In this document: positions 7,348 through 12,437 of the stretch, piece after piece
Numbering within the stretch: the stretch's first letter is position 1
Layout of the letters: every line of letters starts with the position of its first letter
Assembly: GCA_965227845.1 (NCBI GenBank)
Contig: OZ245770.1
Span: 2,715,017-2,779,016 of the forward strand
DNA length: 64,000 nt
From: Kaistia sp.
Lineage (GTDB): Bacteria; Pseudomonadota; Alphaproteobacteria; Rhizobiales; Kaistiaceae
Direction of reading: 5' to 3'
Translations under genes and position numbers: made by a program
The notes under the pieces: model-generated
The model's input: the letters and a program-made list of their open reading frames with translations, nothing else
Databases searched by the model: none
Told to the model about the DNA's origin: nothing

Positions 7348-9003
7348 ATGTCGGATACCACCGTTAATGCACTGGCCGGAAAACCCGTGCCGCGCGCGCT
7401 GCTCGCGAATATTCCTCGGCTGATGACGGCCTATTTCACGCTGACGCCCGACCCCGCCATCCGGGCGCAGCGCGTGGCGTTCGGCACCTCCGGCCACCGT
7501 GGTTCGGCCTATGCGGCCTCGTTCAACGAGTGGCACATCCTCGCGATCACGCAAGCCGTCTGCAACTACCGGAAGAGCGTCGGCACCACCGGGCCGCTGT
7601 TCATCGGCATGGACAGCCATGCGCTGTCCGAAGCGGCCTTTGCCAGCGCCCTCGAGGTTCTCGCGGCCAATGGCGTCGAGACGATGATCGACGCTGCCGG
7701 CGGCTACACACCGACGCCGGTCATCTCGCACGCGATCCTCACCTATAACCGCGGCCGCACCGAGGGCCTTGCCGACGGCATCGTGATCAGCCCGTCGCAT
7801 AATCCACCTGATGAAGGCGGCTTCAAATACAACCCGGTCAATGGCGGCCCAGCCGATGTCGACGTTACCGGTTGGATCGGCAAGGCCGCGAACGATTTCC
7901 TCGCGGCCAAGCTCGTCGGCATCAAGCGCCTGCCTTATGAGACGGCGCGCAAGGCCGCCTGCGTCCACGCTTATGACTTCGTCACACCCTATGTGGCCGA
8001 TCTCGCCCGCGTGGTCGACATGGACGCGATCCGCGGCTCCGGCGTCCGCGTCGGCATCGATCCGCTCGGCGGCGCCGCGATCGGCTACTGGCAGCCGGTG
8101 ATCGAGCGCTATGGCATCGCCGCGACCGTGGTCAACGACGTCGTCGACCAGACGTTCAGCTTCATGACGGCGGACTGGGACGGCAAGATCCGCATGGACT
8201 GCTCCTCGCCCTATGCGATGGCGCCGCTGATCGCGCTCCGCGACCGCTTCGACGTCGCCTTCGCCAACGATACCGATGCCGACCGGCACGGCATCGTCAC
8301 GCCCTCGGGTGGCCTGATGAACCCGAACGCCTTCCTCGCCGCCTCGGTCGCCTATCTCTGCGGCAACCGACCCGACTGGCGGGCCGACAGCGCCATCGGC
8401 AAGACCGTCGTCTCCAGCGGCATGATCGACCGCGTTGCAGCCAAGATGGGCCGGCGGCTGGTCGAGGTGCCCGTCGGCTTCAAGTGGTTCAGCAAGGGGC
8501 TCGTCGACGGCACGCTCGCCTTCGGCGGCGAGGAGAGCGCCGGTGCCTCGTTCCTGCGCCGCGACGGCACGGTGTGGACCACCGACAAGGACGGCCTGAT
8601 CATGGGCCTCCTGGCGGCGGAGATCACCGCACGCAGCGGCATGGATCCGAGCCAGCTCTATGCCTCGGCCACCGCCGATCTCGGCCACTCCTATTATGCC
8701 CGCATCGATGCGCCGGCGACGGTCGAGCAGAAGGCGCTGCTCGGCAAGCTCGACCCGGGGCAGATCGACGCCACCGAACTCGCCGGCGAGACCGTCGAGG
8801 CGCGGCTGACGCATGCGCCCGGCAATGGCGAGCCGATCGGCGGCATCAAGATCGTGACGAAGGACGGCTGGTTCGCGGCGCGGCCGTCGGGCACCGAAGA
8901 AGTCTACAAGATCTACGCCGAGAGCTTCCGCAGCGCCGAGCATCTCGCCGAGATCCAGGCCGATGCGCGCGCGACGGTGTCGCGCCTGTTCGCGGCGCAA
9001 TAG
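7348..9003 (+). CDS. pgm: Phosphoglucomutase (alpha-D-glucose phosphate-specific)
   Basis: FGTSGHRG, ISPSHNPP active-site Ser, DTDADRHG metal loop, GGEESAGAS, RPSGTE. Confidence 0.95.
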   Translation: MSDTTVNALAGKPVPRALLANIPRLMTAYFTLTPDPAIRAQRVAFGTSGHRGSAYAASFNEWHILAITQAVCNYRKSVGTTGPLFIGMDSHALSEAAFASALEVLAANGVETMIDAAGGYTPTPVISHAILTYNRGRTEGLADGIVISPSHNPPDEGGFKYNPVNGGPADVDVTGWIGKAANDFLAAKLVGIKRLPYETARKAACVHAYDFVTPYVADLARVVDMDAIRGSGVRVGIDPLGGAAIGYWQPVIERYGIAATVVNDVVDQTFSFMTADWDGKIRMDCSSPYAMAPLIALRDRFDVAFANDTDADRHGIVTPSGGLMNPNAFLAASVAYLCGNRPDWRADSAIGKTVVSSGMIDRVAAKMGRRLVEVPVGFKWFSKGLVDGTLAFGGEESAGASFLRRDGTVWTTDKDGLIMGLLAAEITARSGMDPSQLYASATADLGHSYYARIDAPATVEQKALLGKLDPGQIDATELAGETVEARLTHAPGNGEPIGGIKIVTKDGWFAARPSGTEEVYKIYAESFRSAEHLAEIQADARATVSRLFAAQ

Positions 9004-9017
9004 GCGCGCCGTCGCGA

Positions 9018-9041
9018 ATGGGCCGGGTCGACCCGGCCCAT
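9018..9041. repeat. Perfect 24-bp palindrome just downstream of pgm
   Basis: atgggccgggtc|gacccggcccat. Confidence 0.75.
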
Positions 9042-9149
9042 CGCCCATCTTTGCTCTCCGTCAATCGGCGGTTGGCGATTCCCGCTAGGGTGCGCGCGAT
9101 CGGGCGGCCGAGGCCGGCTCCGATCGCGTCCGAGCTTTGCGAGGAATTC

Positions 9150-9221
9150 ATGCCGTTCGAGCAGCCGCCTTTCTTTGTGATCGCGGCCCGGCCTGGCGCG
9201 ACGGCGGAGGCACCGCGGTGA
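9150..9221 (+). CDS. Putative 23-aa Pro-rich leader peptide upstream of mgtA (MPFEQPPFFVIAARPGATAEAPR)
   Basis: GAGGA SD at 9141-9145, ATG at 9150, 5 Pro including a PP pair, stop TGA overlaps the mgtA start (GTGATG). Confidence 0.45.
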   Translation: MPFEQPPFFVIAARPGATAEAPR

Positions 9222-11794
9222 TGGGGCATCAGGACCGGCCGCCGGCGCGCAGGAGCCGAGGCGCCGCACCGCGGGCCCAGCCGGCCTTCTGGACAGAGAC
9301 CGACGACGCGCTGCTCGCGCGGCTGCAGAGCCGGCAGGCGGGCCTCACCTCGGCCGAGGCCGGCGAGCGCCTTGCGAGGATCGGGCCGAACACCGCCGTC
9401 ATCGGCGGGCGGCATGGCTTCCTCGCCCGTCTCGCCAAGCGCCTCACCGAGCCGCTGGTCGCCATCCTCCTGATCGCCGCCACGATCTCCGGACTTACCG
9501 GCGACTGGCAGAGCTTCGTCATCATCCTCGTCATCGTCCTGTTCTCGATCGGGCTCGACATGGTGCAGGAACGCCAGGCCCGCACGACGATCGAGGCGCT
9601 GAAGCGTTCGGTCGCGGTGTCGGCATCGGTCCGCCGCGACGGCGTCACACACGAATTGCCCGTGCACGAGATCGTCCCGGGCGACATCGTCGATCTGAAG
9701 GCTGGCGAACTCGTCCCAGCCGACGGCGTCGTTCTCGCCGCCGCGGCGGCCGAGGCCAACGAGGCGGTGCTGACGGGCGAGCCCTATCGCGTCGAGAAGC
9801 GGCCGGGCCCGTCTGGCTCCACCGCGCTCTCCGGCGCCTTCAACGCCCTGATCGGCGGCACGTCCCTGGTCGGCGGCACCGCCGTCATGCTCGTCGTCGC
9901 CACCGGCAGTGCCACGCGCTTCGGCGCCATCTCGGCCGCGGTCCAGGAACTCGAGCCGCCGGGCGCCTTCGAGCGCGGCGTGCACGCCTTGGGCATGCTG
10001 ATCCTGCGGCTGACCGGATTCCTGGTGCTGTTCGTGTTGCTGACGCAGCTCCTTCGCAACGGGCTGACGCTCGAGGGCTTCCTATTCGCCGTTGCGCTCG
10101 CCGTCGGGCTGACGCCCGAATTGCTGCCGATGGTGATGACCGTGACTCTGGCGCGCGGCGCCGAGCGGATGGCGGCGCGCAAGGTGGTGGTGAAGCGGCT
10201 GTCGGCGATCCACGATCTCGGCGCGATGGACGTGCTCTGCACCGACAAGACGGGCACGCTGACCGAAGCGCGGATCGCCCATGTCGGCAGCTTCGGCATC
10301 GAGGGCGGCGATAGCGCGCGCGTGACGGCCCTCGCCCGGCTCAACAGCCGCTTTGCCGGCGGCGTCGGCAACAGCCTCGACGAGGCGCTTCTCGACGGTG
10401 CGACGGATCGGGCCGAGGGCTGGATCCATCTGGACGACCTGCCCTTCGACTTCGAGCGCCGGCTGGCCTCGGTGCTGCTCGGCCATGACGGCGCGGCCAC
10501 CATGATCACCAAGGGCGCGCCGGAGGCGCTGCTCGCACGGTGCACCCAGGCCGAGGCGGCGGACGGGAGCCTCGTTCCCCTCGATTCCGCGCTGCGCGCC
10601 CGCATCGAGGCGGCGATCGAGGCCAAGGGACGCGAAGGCTTCCGGTTGCTCGGCGTCGGCTGGCGGACGATGGAACCCGCCTGCCAGACGATCGCGACGA
10701 GCGATGAGGCGGACCTCGTCTTTGCCGGCTGCACGGTCTTCCTCGATCCGCCCAAGCCGTCGGCCGGCGCGGCGGTGACCCGGCTCATCGCGGCGGGCGT
10801 CCGCGTCAAGATCATCTCCGGCGACGGCGCCGCCGTCGTCAGCCATCTCGTGGAGACACTCGCCCTGCCGGCGCATGGCCTCATGACCGGCGAGGAGATT
10901 GCCGCCCTGAAGGACGACGCCCTGGCGCTGCGCGTCGTCGACACGGATCTGTTCGTGCGCGTCTCGCCGGACCAGAAGAGTCGCATCGTGCGGGCCCTGC
11001 GCCGCCGTGGCCATACGGTCGGCTTCATCGGCGACGGCATCAACGACGCGCCGGCAATCCATGCCGCCGATGTCGGGCTCTCGGTCGAAGGGGGCGCCGA
11101 TGTCGCGCGCGAGGCGGCCGACATCATCCTGCTCGCCCCCGATCTCGGCGTTCTTGCCGACGGCGTCGCCGAGGGGCGGCGGACCTATGCCAACATCATG
11201 AAATACATCCGCATGGGTACCAGCTCCAATTTCGGCAACATGCTGTCGATGGCGCTGGCCTCGCTCGTCTTGCCGTTCCTGCCGCTCGCGCCGCTGCAGA
11301 TCCTGCTCAACAACCTCATCTATGACGTCTCGGAAATCGGCATTCCGTTCGACAGCGCCGACAAGGAACAGCTCGCGACCCCGCAATCCTGGGACATGCG
11401 CCAGGTCCTTCGCTTCACGCTGGTGATGGGGCCGCTGTCCTCGCTGTTCGACCTCGCCACCTTCGCCATGCTGCATTGGGGCTTCCATGCCGATGTCGCG
11501 ACTTTCCGCACGGCCTGGTTCGTCGAGTCGATCGCGACGCAGATCCTCGTCATCTTCATCATCCGCACCGCCAAGCCGCTCTGGCTCAGCCGGCCGCATC
11601 CGATCCTGATCGCGACCTCGCTTGGCGCGCTCGCGGTCGCCCTGGTGCTGGCGCTGACCCCGCTCGGCGCGATCGTCGGCTTCGTCGCGCTGCCGGGACC
11701 GATCCTCGCCAGCATTGCCGCCGTCTCGCTCGGCTATCTCGCCATGGCCGAGATGCTGAAGCGCTATGCCGTGCCGCGGGTTGCTCAGGCCTGA
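9221..11794 (+). CDS. mgtA: Magnesium-translocating P-type ATPase (type IIIB)
   Basis: GLTPELLP, LCTDKTGTLT phosphorylation motif, TKGAPE, GDGINDAPA, NFGNMLS. GGAGG SD at 9206-9210; start is GTG 9218 or ATG 9221. Confidence 0.9.
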   Translation: MGHQDRPPARRSRGAAPRAQPAFWTETDDALLARLQSRQAGLTSAEAGERLARIGPNTAVIGGRHGFLARLAKRLTEPLVAILLIAATISGLTGDWQSFVIILVIVLFSIGLDMVQERQARTTIEALKRSVAVSASVRRDGVTHELPVHEIVPGDIVDLKAGELVPADGVVLAAAAAEANEAVLTGEPYRVEKRPGPSGSTALSGAFNALIGGTSLVGGTAVMLVVATGSATRFGAISAAVQELEPPGAFERGVHALGMLILRLTGFLVLFVLLTQLLRNGLTLEGFLFAVALAVGLTPELLPMVMTVTLARGAERMAARKVVVKRLSAIHDLGAMDVLCTDKTGTLTEARIAHVGSFGIEGGDSARVTALARLNSRFAGGVGNSLDEALLDGATDRAEGWIHLDDLPFDFERRLASVLLGHDGAATMITKGAPEALLARCTQAEAADGSLVPLDSALRARIEAAIEAKGREGFRLLGVGWRTMEPACQTIATSDEADLVFAGCTVFLDPPKPSAGAAVTRLIAAGVRVKIISGDGAAVVSHLVETLALPAHGLMTGEEIAALKDDALALRVVDTDLFVRVSPDQKSRIVRALRRRGHTVGFIGDGINDAPAIHAADVGLSVEGGADVAREAADIILLAPDLGVLADGVAEGRRTYANIMKYIRMGTSSNFGNMLSMALASLVLPFLPLAPLQILLNNLIYDVSEIGIPFDSADKEQLATPQSWDMRQVLRFTLVMGPLSSLFDLATFAMLHWGFHADVATFRTAWFVESIATQILVIFIIRTAKPLWLSRPHPILIATSLGALAVALVLALTPLGAIVGFVALPGPILASIAAVSLGYLAMAEMLKRYAVPRVAQA

Positions 11795-11883
11795 TCCCCA
11801 TGCGTCCGCCGTCGCGCGGTGCGAAAGCAGGCTGACGGACCTCCCGCGCCGATGCTATGGATTCGGCGAAGGGAACTGCGGGC

Positions 11884-12285
11884 ATGGCGAAGCGCATAGC
11901 GAGGAGAGCACGGAGCGAGGCGGCGCTGTTCGTCGCGCTGATGCTCGTCGTCCAGGCGCTGCTGAGCGGCCTGTCGCTCGGCCTCGGTGCCGCATCCTCC
12001 GACGGCATCTGGCAGATCGATGCCAGCGGCCTCATCATCTGTACCCGCGACGGCGGCACCGCAACGGCACCCGGCGAGCCGGGCACGGCACATCACGGCT
12101 CCACCGATTGCTGCACCCTCGGCTGCAGCATGGTTGGCGCACTCACCCCCGACCTGCCGCGCGAACCCGCCATCTATCCGCAACCCTCGCGCAGCCTCGG
12201 CGTCAGCCTGGCGAGGATCGTTGATCCCCAGCGACAGGTCGGCCACACGCCGCAGAACCCGCGCGCGCCGCCGATCCTCGCCTGA
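11884..12285 (+). CDS. DUF2946-like membrane-anchored uORF with Cys motif and C-terminal RAPP (CruR-like)
   Basis: N-terminal TM segment, IICTRDG, HHGSTDCCTLGC, ends NPRAPPILA*; sits directly upstream of a PepSY-TM gene. Start may be 11857 or 11884. Confidence 0.75.
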   Translation: MAKRIARRARSEAALFVALMLVVQALLSGLSLGLGAASSDGIWQIDASGLIICTRDGGTATAPGEPGTAHHGSTDCCTLGCSMVGALTPDLPREPAIYPQPSRSLGVSLARIVDPQRQVGHTPQNPRAPPILA

Positions 12286-12437
12286 CGACCGGCCCTCGGG
12301 CCATCCCGATCCCTTCACAGCGCCCTGCCGCGGTCCCGCGCGCAACCGGCCGTGCTCGAGCCGCTCTCTGCGGCCCTGCCGGCCATGCCGCGCGCCGCCG
12401 GGCGCTCGCCCCCACCTCGTTCGAGCCTTTTTCGCCC

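Follow-up and report, generated by a model that had tools for sequence, protein, structure and literature searches.

In a Kaistia genome the start codon of mgtA overlaps the stop codon of a 23-codon, proline-rich upstream open reading frame (uORF), which raises the question of whether this uORF is a translated leader that governs MgtA synthesis or merely an open frame that happens to end there. Enterobacterial mgtA (Salmonella, E. coli) is preceded by MgtL, a 17-codon leader peptide with Pro at residues 3, 5, 7 and 9, and in Salmonella the translation of MgtL reports cytoplasmic Mg2+, Pro-tRNA and EF-P activity. To our knowledge MgtL-type control has been worked out in Salmonella and E. coli only, and our literature search found no leader peptide described for an alphaproteobacterial mgtA. 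We analysed the locus within a 64,000-nt stretch of the Kaistia genome (the window, meaning this whole stretch) and compared it with two relatives in which we found the same type of leader, genome G021/L002 (hereafter L002) and the ENA contig L155.

Layout of the mgtA leader

The gene downstream of the uORF is a genuine mgtA, as its product scores 756.8 bits against TIGR01524 (cut-off 610.75), and its start was placed by comparing the N-termini of orthologs (Table 1). If mgtA instead began at TTG 9137, the uORF would merely be an out-of-frame overlap within the mgtA coding sequence; the mgtA frame is indeed open from 9089 and this TTG is in frame. However, we find such a start hardly credible. 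No SD precedes the TTG, the 28 extra codons have a low GC3 and are not conserved, and the TIGR01524 profile begins at residue 28 of the protein read from ATG 9221. The TTG is also an unlikely start because no in-frame start codon precedes the mgtA ATG of L002. For annotation this means that mgtA of this clade should be taken to start at the codon with which the leader stop overlaps.

Table 1. Features of the mgtA leader region, with positions counted from the first nucleotide of the window
Feature	Position	Strand	Description
Conserved block TTGCTCTCCGTCAA	9051..9064	+	TTGyTCTnnGTCAA in all three genomes (three-way alignments)
Invariant GCTAGGGTG	9084..9092	+	Identical in window, L002 and L155; once per strand in genome
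Hairpin at presumed 5′ end of leader RNA	9094..9129	+	Predicted fold, 10–11 bp
uORF Shine-Dalgarno GCGAGGA	9139..9145	+	GAGG 5 nt before ATG 9150; GCGAGG invariant in three genomes
Leader ORF (uORF)	9150..9221	+	23 codons + TGA, MPFEQPPFFVIAARPGATAEAPR; orthologous ORFs in L002 and L155
Pro-Pro codons CCG CCT (codons 6–7)	9165..9170	+	Same CCG CCT in L155 codons 5–6
SD-like GGAGG of mgtA	9206..9210	+	10 nt before ATG 9221, 7 nt before GTG 9218
mgtA, Mg2+-translocating P-type ATPase	9221..11794	+	TIGR01524 above cut-off and Pfam domains; start ATG 9221 or in-frame GTG 9218

A first-pass annotation of this DNA had described a hairpin, an SD, a 23-codon Pro-rich ORF and an overlap of its TGA with the mgtA start, and all of these are found where it had put them. 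The uORF peptide holds five Pro, including a PP pair at codons 6–7, and its TGA (9219–9221) shares one base with the mgtA ATG (9221–9223) and also overlaps the in-frame mgtA GTG (9218–9220) as GTGA. In keeping with an MgtL-type arrangement, it is a short, SD-preceded ORF inside the mgtA 5′ leader, and its SD is largely unpaired in the predicted folds. The GGAGG of mgtA is not conserved, as the equivalent is absent from L002, where only CAGGG is found; that L002 has no usable mgtA SD fits a dependence of its mgtA on coupling to the uORF.

Further signals lie 5′ of the uORF. The block TTGCTCTCCGTCAA is unique in the 4.85-Mb genome and so is not a repeated regulon motif there, and the conservation of the leader unit starts at TTGyTCT whatever gene lies upstream, the upstream gene of L002 being a different one; the block may be a promoter or an operator, or may mark where the leader unit begins on its 5′ side. 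The invariant GCTAGGGTG is possibly a −10-like element, and a scan of the leader for the sigma-70 consensus gave no match. The predicted hairpin (−23 to −31 kcal/mol, centroid −22.8) is not exceptional when compared with shuffled sequences (z = −1.2), and the relatives fold some hairpin at the matching site, of unrelated sequence and without excess stability.

Conservation and proline content of the uORF

The MgtA proteins of the three leader-bearing genomes are mutually ∼80% identical, and nucleotide identity among the three is 0.67–0.70 at four-fold sites and 0.54–0.57 in the leader. The leader has diverged save for four islands, two of which are the uORF ribosome-binding site and its ATG with Pro codon 2. 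Despite this divergence GCGAGG-N4-5-CATGCC is invariant in all three genomes, and Pro codon 2 varies synonymously (CCG, CCC and CCG). The orthologous uORFs encode MPSAPLPLPAKSPRRPALALVSGPSR in L002 and MPSTPPHYAALTAPGGGAGRWPRTWPRTLARAAPP in L155. The uORF ATG lies 71, 77 and 71 (or 104) nt before the mgtA ATG, a spacing of 2 mod 3 in every case; the uORF is in the +1 frame in 3/3 genomes, and its first stop and an in-frame mgtA start overlap as NTGA or TGATG. The geometry of L155 is ambiguous: if mgtA starts at its first ATG the overlap is 36 nt, but the ORF ends right at a second in-frame ATG. Two hallmarks of translational coupling are thus present, namely a stop/start overlap (TGATG/GTGA in the window, ATGA in L002, and ATGA at the second in-frame ATG in L155) and a ribosome-binding site of the upstream ORF's own that is conserved in the three genomes. 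Counting against a leader, the amino acids of the uORF are not conserved past M-P and the Pro positions, and its GC3 resembles that of coding DNA in the window (0.83) but not in the relatives (0.65 and 0.74).

That the uORF is proline-rich and carries a PP pair, as first described, is borne out by a frame-specific enrichment. CC dinucleotides in the three uORFs are distributed over codon phases 0/1/2 as 20/7/6 (p = 0.0012), and the bias holds in L002 and L155 alone (15/6/5, p = 0.009), two genomes that were not selected for Pro content. The Pro fractions of 0.22, 0.27 and 0.23 place the uORFs in the top 3.8%, 0.7% and 2.4%, respectively, of random ORFs (mean 0.094 in 13,254 random 20–40-codon ATG ORFs of the window's genome). 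The positions of the Pro codons are also kept: codon 2 is Pro in 3/3 genomes and PP occurs at codons 5–7 in 2/3, L002 having P-L-P-L-P where the window and L155 have PP.

A different explanation is that the uORF is open merely by chance, given how GC-rich the leader is, and is not translated in any way that matters, and that the islands are promoter, operator or RNA-binding elements resembling an SD and a start. Stop codons are scarce at 66.5% GC, every +1-frame ATG ahead of an ATGA start produces an ORF of this kind, as is the case at many loci, and the islands TTGyTCTnnGTCAA and GCTAGGGTG are themselves non-coding signals conserved in this leader; the relatives' GC3 values and the sample of only three genomes favour a chance frame as well. 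We nevertheless consider a chance frame unlikely, since the two islands lie at an exact SD-to-ATG spacing (GAGG-N5-6-ATG) in segments predicted to be mostly unpaired, the change in codon 2 is synonymous, indels between the uORF ATG and the mgtA ATG keep the frame, and the Pro-phase bias reaches significance even when only the two genomes picked without regard to Pro are counted. The uORF appears to go beyond chance, as two diverged relatives share its SD, ATG, frame and Pro enrichment as well as the overlap of its stop with the mgtA start.

To define the distribution of the leader we screened 22 genomes of the genus, 41 relatives, species genomes from GTDB, metagenomes from JGI and a collection of 5.8 billion proteins, and also ran a model of the leader sequence over 401 genomes of the order. 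Beyond L002 and L155 no further members were found in any of the collections searched, which counts against the leader reading, and none of the ∼20-bit matches of the model in the 401 genomes lies beside a P-type ATPase. By these searches the element is confined to a small Kaistia sub-clade with three known genomes. A Pro-rich uORF is not a general feature of alphaproteobacterial mgtA, being seen among 81 loci only in the Kaistia clade and in the metagenome singleton L095 (MSRRMMRGAHRPARPARPAFRPVR), and the Xanthobacter sister clade has its own conserved mgtA leader of ∼300 nt, in which an MP-initiated frame is not consistently open. The conservation expected upstream of related mgtA genes is found in part, as the uORF and its Pro codons are kept in two relatives, but no conserved stems were found in the three leaders and the arrangement does not extend to Alphaproteobacteria at large.

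The other Kaistia mgtA orthologs are either coupled to ChaB or have a terminator-bearing leader. Overlap of the mgtA start by an upstream ORF recurs in the MgtA clade with ChaB, BI-1-like and Usp-like genes, and an ATG ORF ends within −3..+45 of the mgtA start at 44/81 loci. In GC-rich DNA, open frames and ATGA overlaps come cheap, an observation that speaks against the leader reading.

The uORF could also be translated and couple ribosomes to mgtA while sensing nothing, perhaps as the remnant of an internally deleted chaB. Such non-sensing coupling is favoured by how common upstream-ORF overlap is for mgtA, and by the ChaB (PF06150) gene, which has 70 codons, lies likewise in the +1 frame with an overlap of 15 nt at the mgtA start (L003–L005, L079 and L156) and is found at loci occupying neighbouring branches of the MgtA tree. 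The chaB start, CATGCC(C/A)TA or MPY, resembles the uORF in M-P and in the CATGCC context, some copies have DLPP at residues 8–11, and in L004 GCGAGG lies upstream of chaB too. However, a chaB DNA profile (nhmmer --max) had no match in the three leaders, and a ChaB protein profile (hmmsearch --max) reached at best ≤0.5 bits (E > 0.3) in all their frames. That the leader has no detectable similarity to either chaB DNA or ChaB protein counts against a chaB relic. ChaB is moreover only 6% Pro, so that a relic leaves the frame-specific Pro enrichment unexplained, and a pure coupling device has no need of conserved Pro positions. Overall, coupling without sensing seems doubtful to us.

RNA pairing, folding and termination

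The first-pass annotation had noted that CCGCC (9165–9169) is complementary to GGCGG (9203–9207), which overlaps the mgtA SD, and this would fit a stall-to-open attenuator of the ermC/secM type, in which a ribosome pausing at the PP codons would stop the 5′ half of the uORF from pairing with the mgtA SD and start, so that mgtA is initiated independently at low Mg2+. Both motifs are present and complementary, but their pairing is at chance level, is not conserved and is absent from every MFE and centroid fold of the leader; the window has 5.2 CCGCC and 4.6 GGCGG per kb, and the leader alone holds three GGCGG and two CCGCC. In favour of an attenuator, positions 9180–9186 (codons 11–13) pair with 9213–9219 in a 148-nt fold from the window, with the SD GGAGG buried, and the footprint of a ribosome holding PP in its P and A sites would extend over about 9150–9185. 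In the mgtE leader of the same genome, moreover, the PP codons (GCCGCC) of an 18-codon ORF pair with a GGCGGC that precedes the mgtE SD, as they do in 17/17 Kaistia genomes aligned. However, the start hairpin in the window is lost once 40 more nucleotides are folded, the start-proximal hairpin of L002 lies wholly within the 3′ half of the uORF, and the mean unpaired probabilities of the two ribosome-binding sites differ inconsistently among the genomes, with no consistent sequestration of the mgtA start. Taken with the chance-level pairing, this makes a stall-to-open attenuator very improbable.

The fold energies of the leaders are no better than those of shuffled sequences (z = +0.7, +0.15 and +1.1 for the three genomes). 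No common structure was found in the three sequences, the alifold covariation term being positive, nor any conserved RNA switch or alternative helix linking the Pro codons to the mgtA start. The leader holds no terminator-like site, and a Rho-loading C>G tract is present only in L002 (C/G of 0.86, 1.67 and 0.95); because the uORF stop overlaps the mgtA start, there is also no spacer in which transcription attenuation could take place. A cmscan of 8900–9400 at E ≤ 10 returned three unrelated hits only (13–16 bits) and no Mg_sensor, and Rfam scans of the relatives' loci, the type-(c) Kaistia leader and the mgtE locus returned no relevant family.

Proposed working and known systems

Together these data suggest that the uORF probably gates MgtA synthesis as a translated leader; the fuller proposal, that it is coupled to the mgtA start and passes ribosomes on in a Pro-dependent manner, has in our judgement about an even chance of being right. 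In this proposal ribosomes would load at the conserved GAGG-N5-ATG of the uORF, make a short peptide that may differ in sequence as long as it stays Pro-rich, and terminate at the stop overlapping the mgtA start (GTGA/TGATG in the window, ATGA in the relatives). MgtA synthesis would then be driven at least in part by termination-reinitiation and by leader ribosomes opening up the GC-rich start region. The Pro load consists of fMet-Pro at codons 1–2, a PP or PLPLP cluster at codons 5–9 and more Pro downstream, and because the leader is loaded with Pro codons, the flow of ribosomes to the mgtA start should depend on the speed at which these codons are translated. From sequence comparison we infer that the uORF is translated, that coupling sets the output of MgtA and that the Pro codons act as the sensor. 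With direct coupling, slower translation of Pro codons at low Mg2+ would result in less MgtA, unless stalling frees the start site.

The locus had been put forward as an independently evolved, translationally coupled analogue of MgtL. An SD-preceded, Pro-enriched uORF that overlaps mgtA and is unrelated to enterobacterial mgtL agrees with this, but the pairing and switch part is not supported. The uORF resembles MgtL in being a short mgtA-leader ORF with its own SD and Pro codons near the N-terminus, in which the act of translating would matter more than the peptide sequence, and the spaced Pro run of MgtL resembles the P-L-P-L-P of L002. In the enterobacterial leader (Rfam family Mg_sensor, RF01056), a stem-loop A/B/C switch and a Rho-dependent terminator lie between mgtL and mgtA, whereas the Kaistia uORF overlaps the mgtA start and leaves no room for either. 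The two also lack any similarity in sequence or structure (no Rfam match at E ≤ 10), and no PhoP-type promoter is evident in Kaistia. In MgtL, Pro combined with acidic residues leads to pausing and ribosome destabilisation at low Mg2+ (PMC12856214). The Kaistia uORF is without this acidic/Pro motif, as the N-terminus has a single Glu in the window (MPFEQPP) and none in L002 (MPSAPLPLP) or L155 (MPSTPPH).

A second Salmonella leader ORF, MgtP of mgtCBR, is reportedly Pro-rich as well (reportedly described by Nam et al. in 2016, a study that PMC12856214 cites). By analogy the uORF may be likened to MgtP, as both loci serve Mg2+ transport and have a leader ORF with consecutive Pro codons, and translation of MgtP depends on EF-P and Pro-tRNA; MgtP, however, uses alternative stem-loops that act on transcription elongation within a long leader, whereas the Kaistia uORF abuts its gene. 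Overlapping stop and start codons couple translation in many operons, and the ATGA/TGATG coupling of ChaB to mgtA in other Kaistia has the same +1 frame and the same overlap geometry as the uORF, but unlike the ChaB–mgtA pairs the uORF comprises 23–35 codons of variable sequence and high Pro content with no conserved protein product. In SecM–secA, ErmCL–ermC and the RAPP-type CruR/CutF expression of a gene is controlled by the slowing of a ribosome on a short ORF ahead of it, with Pro central to the stall; unlike these arrest-peptide leaders, the uORF has no conserved arrest motif (only L155 ends in RAAPP) and no conserved helix that sequesters a ribosome-binding site.

A broader view, which we offer tentatively and think rather unlikely, is that Kaistia Mg2+ transporters are under ribosome-based sensors and not under M-box riboswitches or PhoPQ-type leaders. 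The mgtA uORF would then be an independent Pro-codon sensor working by coupling alone, with no terminator or RNA switch, the genus-wide 18-codon PP ORF before mgtE would add a second case of different structure, and both would belong to a wider, undescribed class outside enterobacteria. If the proposal for mgtA is true, an unrelated Pro-rich leader at an alphaproteobacterial mgtA would imply that the logic of MgtL evolves repeatedly. Its architecture would be simpler than that of MgtL, as direct translational coupling replaces the Rho-dependent attenuator, and would provide a compact system in which to ask whether the translation of Pro codons is a general sensor of cytoplasmic Mg2+.

Layout of the mgtA locus

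The first-pass annotation had described a short ORF upstream of mgtA, together with a preceding hairpin, its SD and a stop codon overlapping the mgtA start, and re-reading of the sequence combined with the TIGR01524 profile confirmed all of these elements as well as the identity of mgtA. The long ORF 3′ of the leader ORF is a bona fide Mg2+-translocating P-type ATPase, as its product scores 756.8 bits against TIGR01524 (cut-off 610.75) and contains the usual Pfam domains. An SD-like GGAGG precedes GTG 9218 by 7 nt and ATG 9221 by 10 nt. The open mgtA frame extends back to a TTG at 9137, which was rejected as the start codon, since the closest relative has no in-frame start codon 5′ of its mgtA ATG and the TIGR01524 profile begins at residue 28 of the protein counted from ATG 9221; the start at 9218/9221 therefore stands.

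The perfect GC hairpin following pgm probably serves as its terminator, and the hairpin's T-rich tail extends into the mgtA leader, reaching the first block conserved there. An analogous hairpin (GCCGCCG...CGGCGGC) is present at the equivalent place after pgm in L155, an ENA contig from a relative.

Coordinates of the mgtA leader and of related features (window positions, or positions within the named locus or relative to the mgtA start)
Feature	Position	Strand	Remarks
pgm	end at 9003		window
GC hairpin GGGCCGGGTCGACCCGGCCC	9020-9039		17 nt past pgm stop, then ATCGCCCATCTTTGCTCT
Hairpin	9094-9129		window, mgtA leader
GCGAGGA	9139-9145		ahead of leader ORF ATG
Leader ORF, 23 codons	ATG at 9150		window, peptide MPFEQPPFFVIAARPGATAEAPR
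Leader ORF stop TGA	9219-9221		A shared with ATG 9221; forms GTGA with in-frame GTG 9218
mgtA	ATG 9221 or in-frame GTG 9218, to 11794		TIGR01524 and Pfam domains
DUF2946-like ORF	11857-12437		between mgtA and PepSY_TM gene
Leader ORF, L002			peptide MPSAPLPLPAKSPRRPALALVSGPSR
Leader ORF, L155			peptide MPSTPPHYAALTAPGGGAGRWPRTWPRTLARAAPP
ChaB (PF06150), 70 codons	L003, L004, L005: -197..+15; L079:1277-1489; L156:1304-1516		15-nt mgtA overlap
Type-(c) mgtA leader	L006:4054-4320; L007:4051-4317; L008:4051-4317	minus	three other Kaistia species
mgtE	G000:854118-855485		window's genome, outside the window
mgtE leader	G000:C1:855486-855610	minus	L163:2866-2990; orthologs L164-L183
Xanthobacter mgtA leader	about -300 to -1		L023, L056, L074; ~300 nt
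RP-repeat ORF, 24 codons	-76..-2		metagenome L095

Conservation and proline content of the leader ORF

The MgtA proteins of the window, L155 and L002 (a locus of the Kaistia MAG G021) are ~80% identical to each other and the four-fold sites of their genes are 0.67-0.70 identical (∼0.46 expected at saturation), while the three leaders are 0.54-0.57 identical over alignable columns. The intergenic alignment contains four conserved islands, TTGyTCTnnGTCAA, GCTAGGGTG, GCGAGG and CATGCC, of which the last two are separated by 4-5 nt in all three genomes. They read as a Shine-Dalgarno sequence followed by an ATG start and the CC of a Pro codon 2, whose third position varies (CCG, CCC and CCG in the window, L002 and L155, respectively). 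The promoter-like TTGyTCTnnGTCAA block occurs once in the window's genome and shows no match to the sigma-70 consensus. The upstream neighbour in L002 differs from that of the window, being a divergent glycosyltransferase-like gene, and conservation still starts at the TTGyTCT block, which appears to mark the left edge of the conserved leader unit.

The leader ORFs (uORFs) are 23, 26 and 35 codons long in the window, L002 and L155. The uORF and mgtA ATGs lie 71, 77 and 71 (or 104) nt apart, all spacings being equal to 2 mod 3, and the first stop in the uORF frame overlaps an in-frame mgtA start in 3/3 cases (TGATG/GTGA, ATGA and ATGA). In L155, the mgtA frame has another ATG 5′ of the overlapped one; as the GC3 of the 12 codons before the overlapped ATG is 11/12 in the mgtA frame, the first ATG may be the real mgtA start, in which case the uORF overlaps mgtA by 36 nt. 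Alignment of the mgtA upstream regions bears out a conserved uORF, with SD, ATG, frame, stop overlap and Pro codon 2 kept in all three genomes, and the three sequences give no common RNA structure.

The CC dinucleotides in the three leader ORFs are distributed 20, 7 and 6 over codon phases 0, 1 and 2 (binomial p=0.0012), and this bias is retained (binomial p=0.009) when the window, which had been selected for its prolines, is left out. Pro accounts for 0.22, 0.27 and 0.23 of the codons in the window, L002 and L155, ranking them in the top 3.8%, 0.7% and 2.4% of the genome's short ORFs (mean 0.094 over 13,254 ORFs with an ATG start and 20-40 codons from the window's genome, 4.85 Mb and 66.5% GC). 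In addition to the Pro at codon 2 in 3/3 ORFs, the window and L155 have a CCG CCT pair at codons 6-7 and 5-6, respectively, and L002 encodes P-L-P-L-P at codons 5-9. Beyond the Pro positions there is no conservation of the peptide among the three genomes, and GC3 is coding-like in the window only (0.83, vs 0.65 and 0.74 in the relatives; real genes of the window's genome 0.88-0.90). Given this otherwise unconserved peptide and weak GC3, the leader ORF, if it matters, would do so through its translation and Pro codons and not through a folded product. Although the sample is three genomes only, the SD/ATG islands, the preserved frame and the Pro-phase bias in two unselected genomes, taken together, make an ORF arising by chance alone an unlikely explanation.

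Mg2+ transporter leaders in Kaistia and its relatives

Among 22 Kaistia species genomes, 11 contain a match to the window's MgtA at E≤1e-150, namely 9 orthologs (67-100% identical) and 2 paralogs (41-42%). The orthologs have three different upstream arrangements: (a) a short, proline-rich ORF that terminates at the mgtA start, in the window and L002 (MgtA 80% identical); (b) a ChaB gene of 70 codons that extends 15 nt into mgtA, in L003-L005 and also in metagenome loci L079 and L156; and (c) a long leader that combines an invariant multi-stem element with an intrinsic terminator, in L006-L008. Searching 5.8 billion proteins gave one more close MgtA (P0004, 81%), whose contig L155 has a type-(a) leader and keeps the window's synteny pgm-mgtA-DUF2946-PepSY_TM. 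A tree built from the closest MgtA proteins places the window, L002 and L155 in one clade, sister to Xanthobacter. No further type-(a) leader was found in JGI metagenomes or GTDB species genomes, and a leader sequence model run over 401 genomes of the order recovered the known two with 102 and 92 bits and all others with ∼20 bits, none of which adjoins an ATPase. The leader element is known from three genomes so far.

The type-(a) leader ORF could be a relic of chaB, as chaB genes start with CATGCC(C/A)TA (MPY...) in the same +1 frame. However, DNA- and protein-level profile searches find no chaB trace in the leaders, and as ChaB is 6% Pro, such an origin would leave the Pro enrichment unexplained. 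The ChaB/mgtA overlap in several Kaistia and metagenome relatives itself suggests a functional ChaB-MgtA pairing.

An ATG-initiated ORF, 10-70 codons long, has its end between -3 and +45 relative to the mgtA start in 44/81 mgtA loci, and many of these ORFs are tails of real genes (BI-1/YccA-like in sphingomonads, Usp-like, ChaB). As upstream-ORF overlap is so common in this MgtA clade, the ATGA overlap alone is weak evidence; coupling to some upstream element seems to be a general trait of mgtA.

In sphingomonads (L024, L031, L036, L037, L081, L131, L137) the mgtA start shares an ATGA with the stop codon of an upstream gene that ends ...LYLDFLNLFLSLLRFTGRRR; from its C-terminus alone we take this gene to be BI-1/YccA-like. 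In the S. pruni group (L043, L044, L105, L106, L110) only a short SD-preceded ORF (MDRQSRHLLTSR...) remains upstream of mgtA, with a similar C-terminal tail kept in 3/5 loci (L044, L105, L110); this looks like a decayed upstream gene retained for coupling. Xanthobacter mgtA has its own conserved leader, with blocks including GGCTCGCCGATCCCGCGCCGATGCCGAGGGAGAGGAGGGTTCGCCGGTCGATCACAACGCTTCGCCTTC and CACAGATAGCGCGAAGC, in which no uORF is consistently kept open. A singleton, metagenome L095 (MgtA 61% identical), carries an SD-preceded ORF with an RP-repeat, MSRRMMRGAHRPARPARPAFRPVR, whose stop overlaps the mgtA ATG as TGATG, like the window.

The type-(c) leaders, one of them from K. geumhonensis according to its protein record, contain an invariant ∼75-nt multi-stem element (TGCGAGGCGGTGGTTCCCCCGAGCGCCGGAGACGTCTCCCCCACGGTCGCGTCTCGTCGGAAACGGCCCTCGCA), folded by RNAalifold into a three-way junction, and 3′ of it an intrinsic terminator (CGCCGCCGGGATTCCCCCTCCCGGCGGCGG and a T-run) ∼100 nt before the mgtA ATG. 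No Rfam family matches. This element is a candidate unclassified riboswitch or attenuator.

The mgtE gene is present in 22 Kaistia genomes and its leader is conserved in 20/20 examined. This leader contains an 18-codon ORF (MPSDSPSRLSVPPAAATV in the window's genome, MSSDSSCRIQAPPTAAVT in others), open at the same length in 18/20 genomes and preceded by an SD in the window's sub-clade only. In 17/17 aligned sequences the GCCGCC of the PP codons pairs with a GGCGGC further 3′. The leader also has palindromic CGATCG boxes and a GGCTCAC box, the latter complementary to GTGAGCC-ATG at the mgtE SD/start. Rfam gave no match for this leader; a leader-peptide switch and a riboswitch are both candidates. 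Although it lies outside the window, the mgtE leader adds to the plausibility that Kaistia controls Mg2+ transport through the ribosome.

RNA structure, proposed translational coupling and comparison with MgtL

A pairing between CCGCC (9165-9169) in the PP codons and GGCGG (9203-9207) at the mgtA SD had been proposed earlier. The two are complementary, but each 5-mer occurs ∼5 times per kb, none of the MFE or centroid structures contains the pairing, and neither L002 nor L155 has an equivalent of it at the mgtA SD; L002 mgtA has no usable SD. None of the leader folds exceeds its dinucleotide shuffles in stability (z = +0.7, +0.15 and +1.1), the covariation term of the three-sequence consensus fold is positive, and predicted accessibility does not differ consistently between the uORF and mgtA ribosome-binding sites. 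The 148-nt fold contains a hairpin (9177-9222) in which the mgtA SD and start of the window are buried; the 189-nt fold lacks it. The mgtA leader contains no terminator-like site, the three leaders share no consistent C-rich tract, and no Rfam family, including the enterobacterial Mg_sensor, matches.

The 23-codon ORF is most likely a translated leader of mgtA, judging from its conserved sequence features. A ribosome terminating on it would hand over to, or open, the mgtA start, and its Pro load (fMet-Pro and the early PP cluster) would make leader ribosome flux sensitive to limits on Pro-codon translation. With simple coupling, slower Pro translation would result in less MgtA, whereas in a stall-to-open alternative it would result in more; the latter is not supported by the fold predictions. 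Of the MgtL-like coupled analogue originally suggested, the conserved, Pro-enriched uORF with its stop overlapping the mgtA start is supported, and the CCGCC/GGCGG link is not.

Full-text literature searches returned MgtL work in enterobacteria only, and no leader peptide described for an alphaproteobacterial mgtA. In Salmonella, translation of the MgtL Pro codons reports Mg2+, proline and EF-P (PMC12856214). The Kaistia leader ORF is not a member of the MgtL family, from which it differs in having no homology, spacer, attenuator or acidic/Pro motif; what it would have in common with MgtL is that its Pro codons make ribosome flux dependent on Pro-codon translation.
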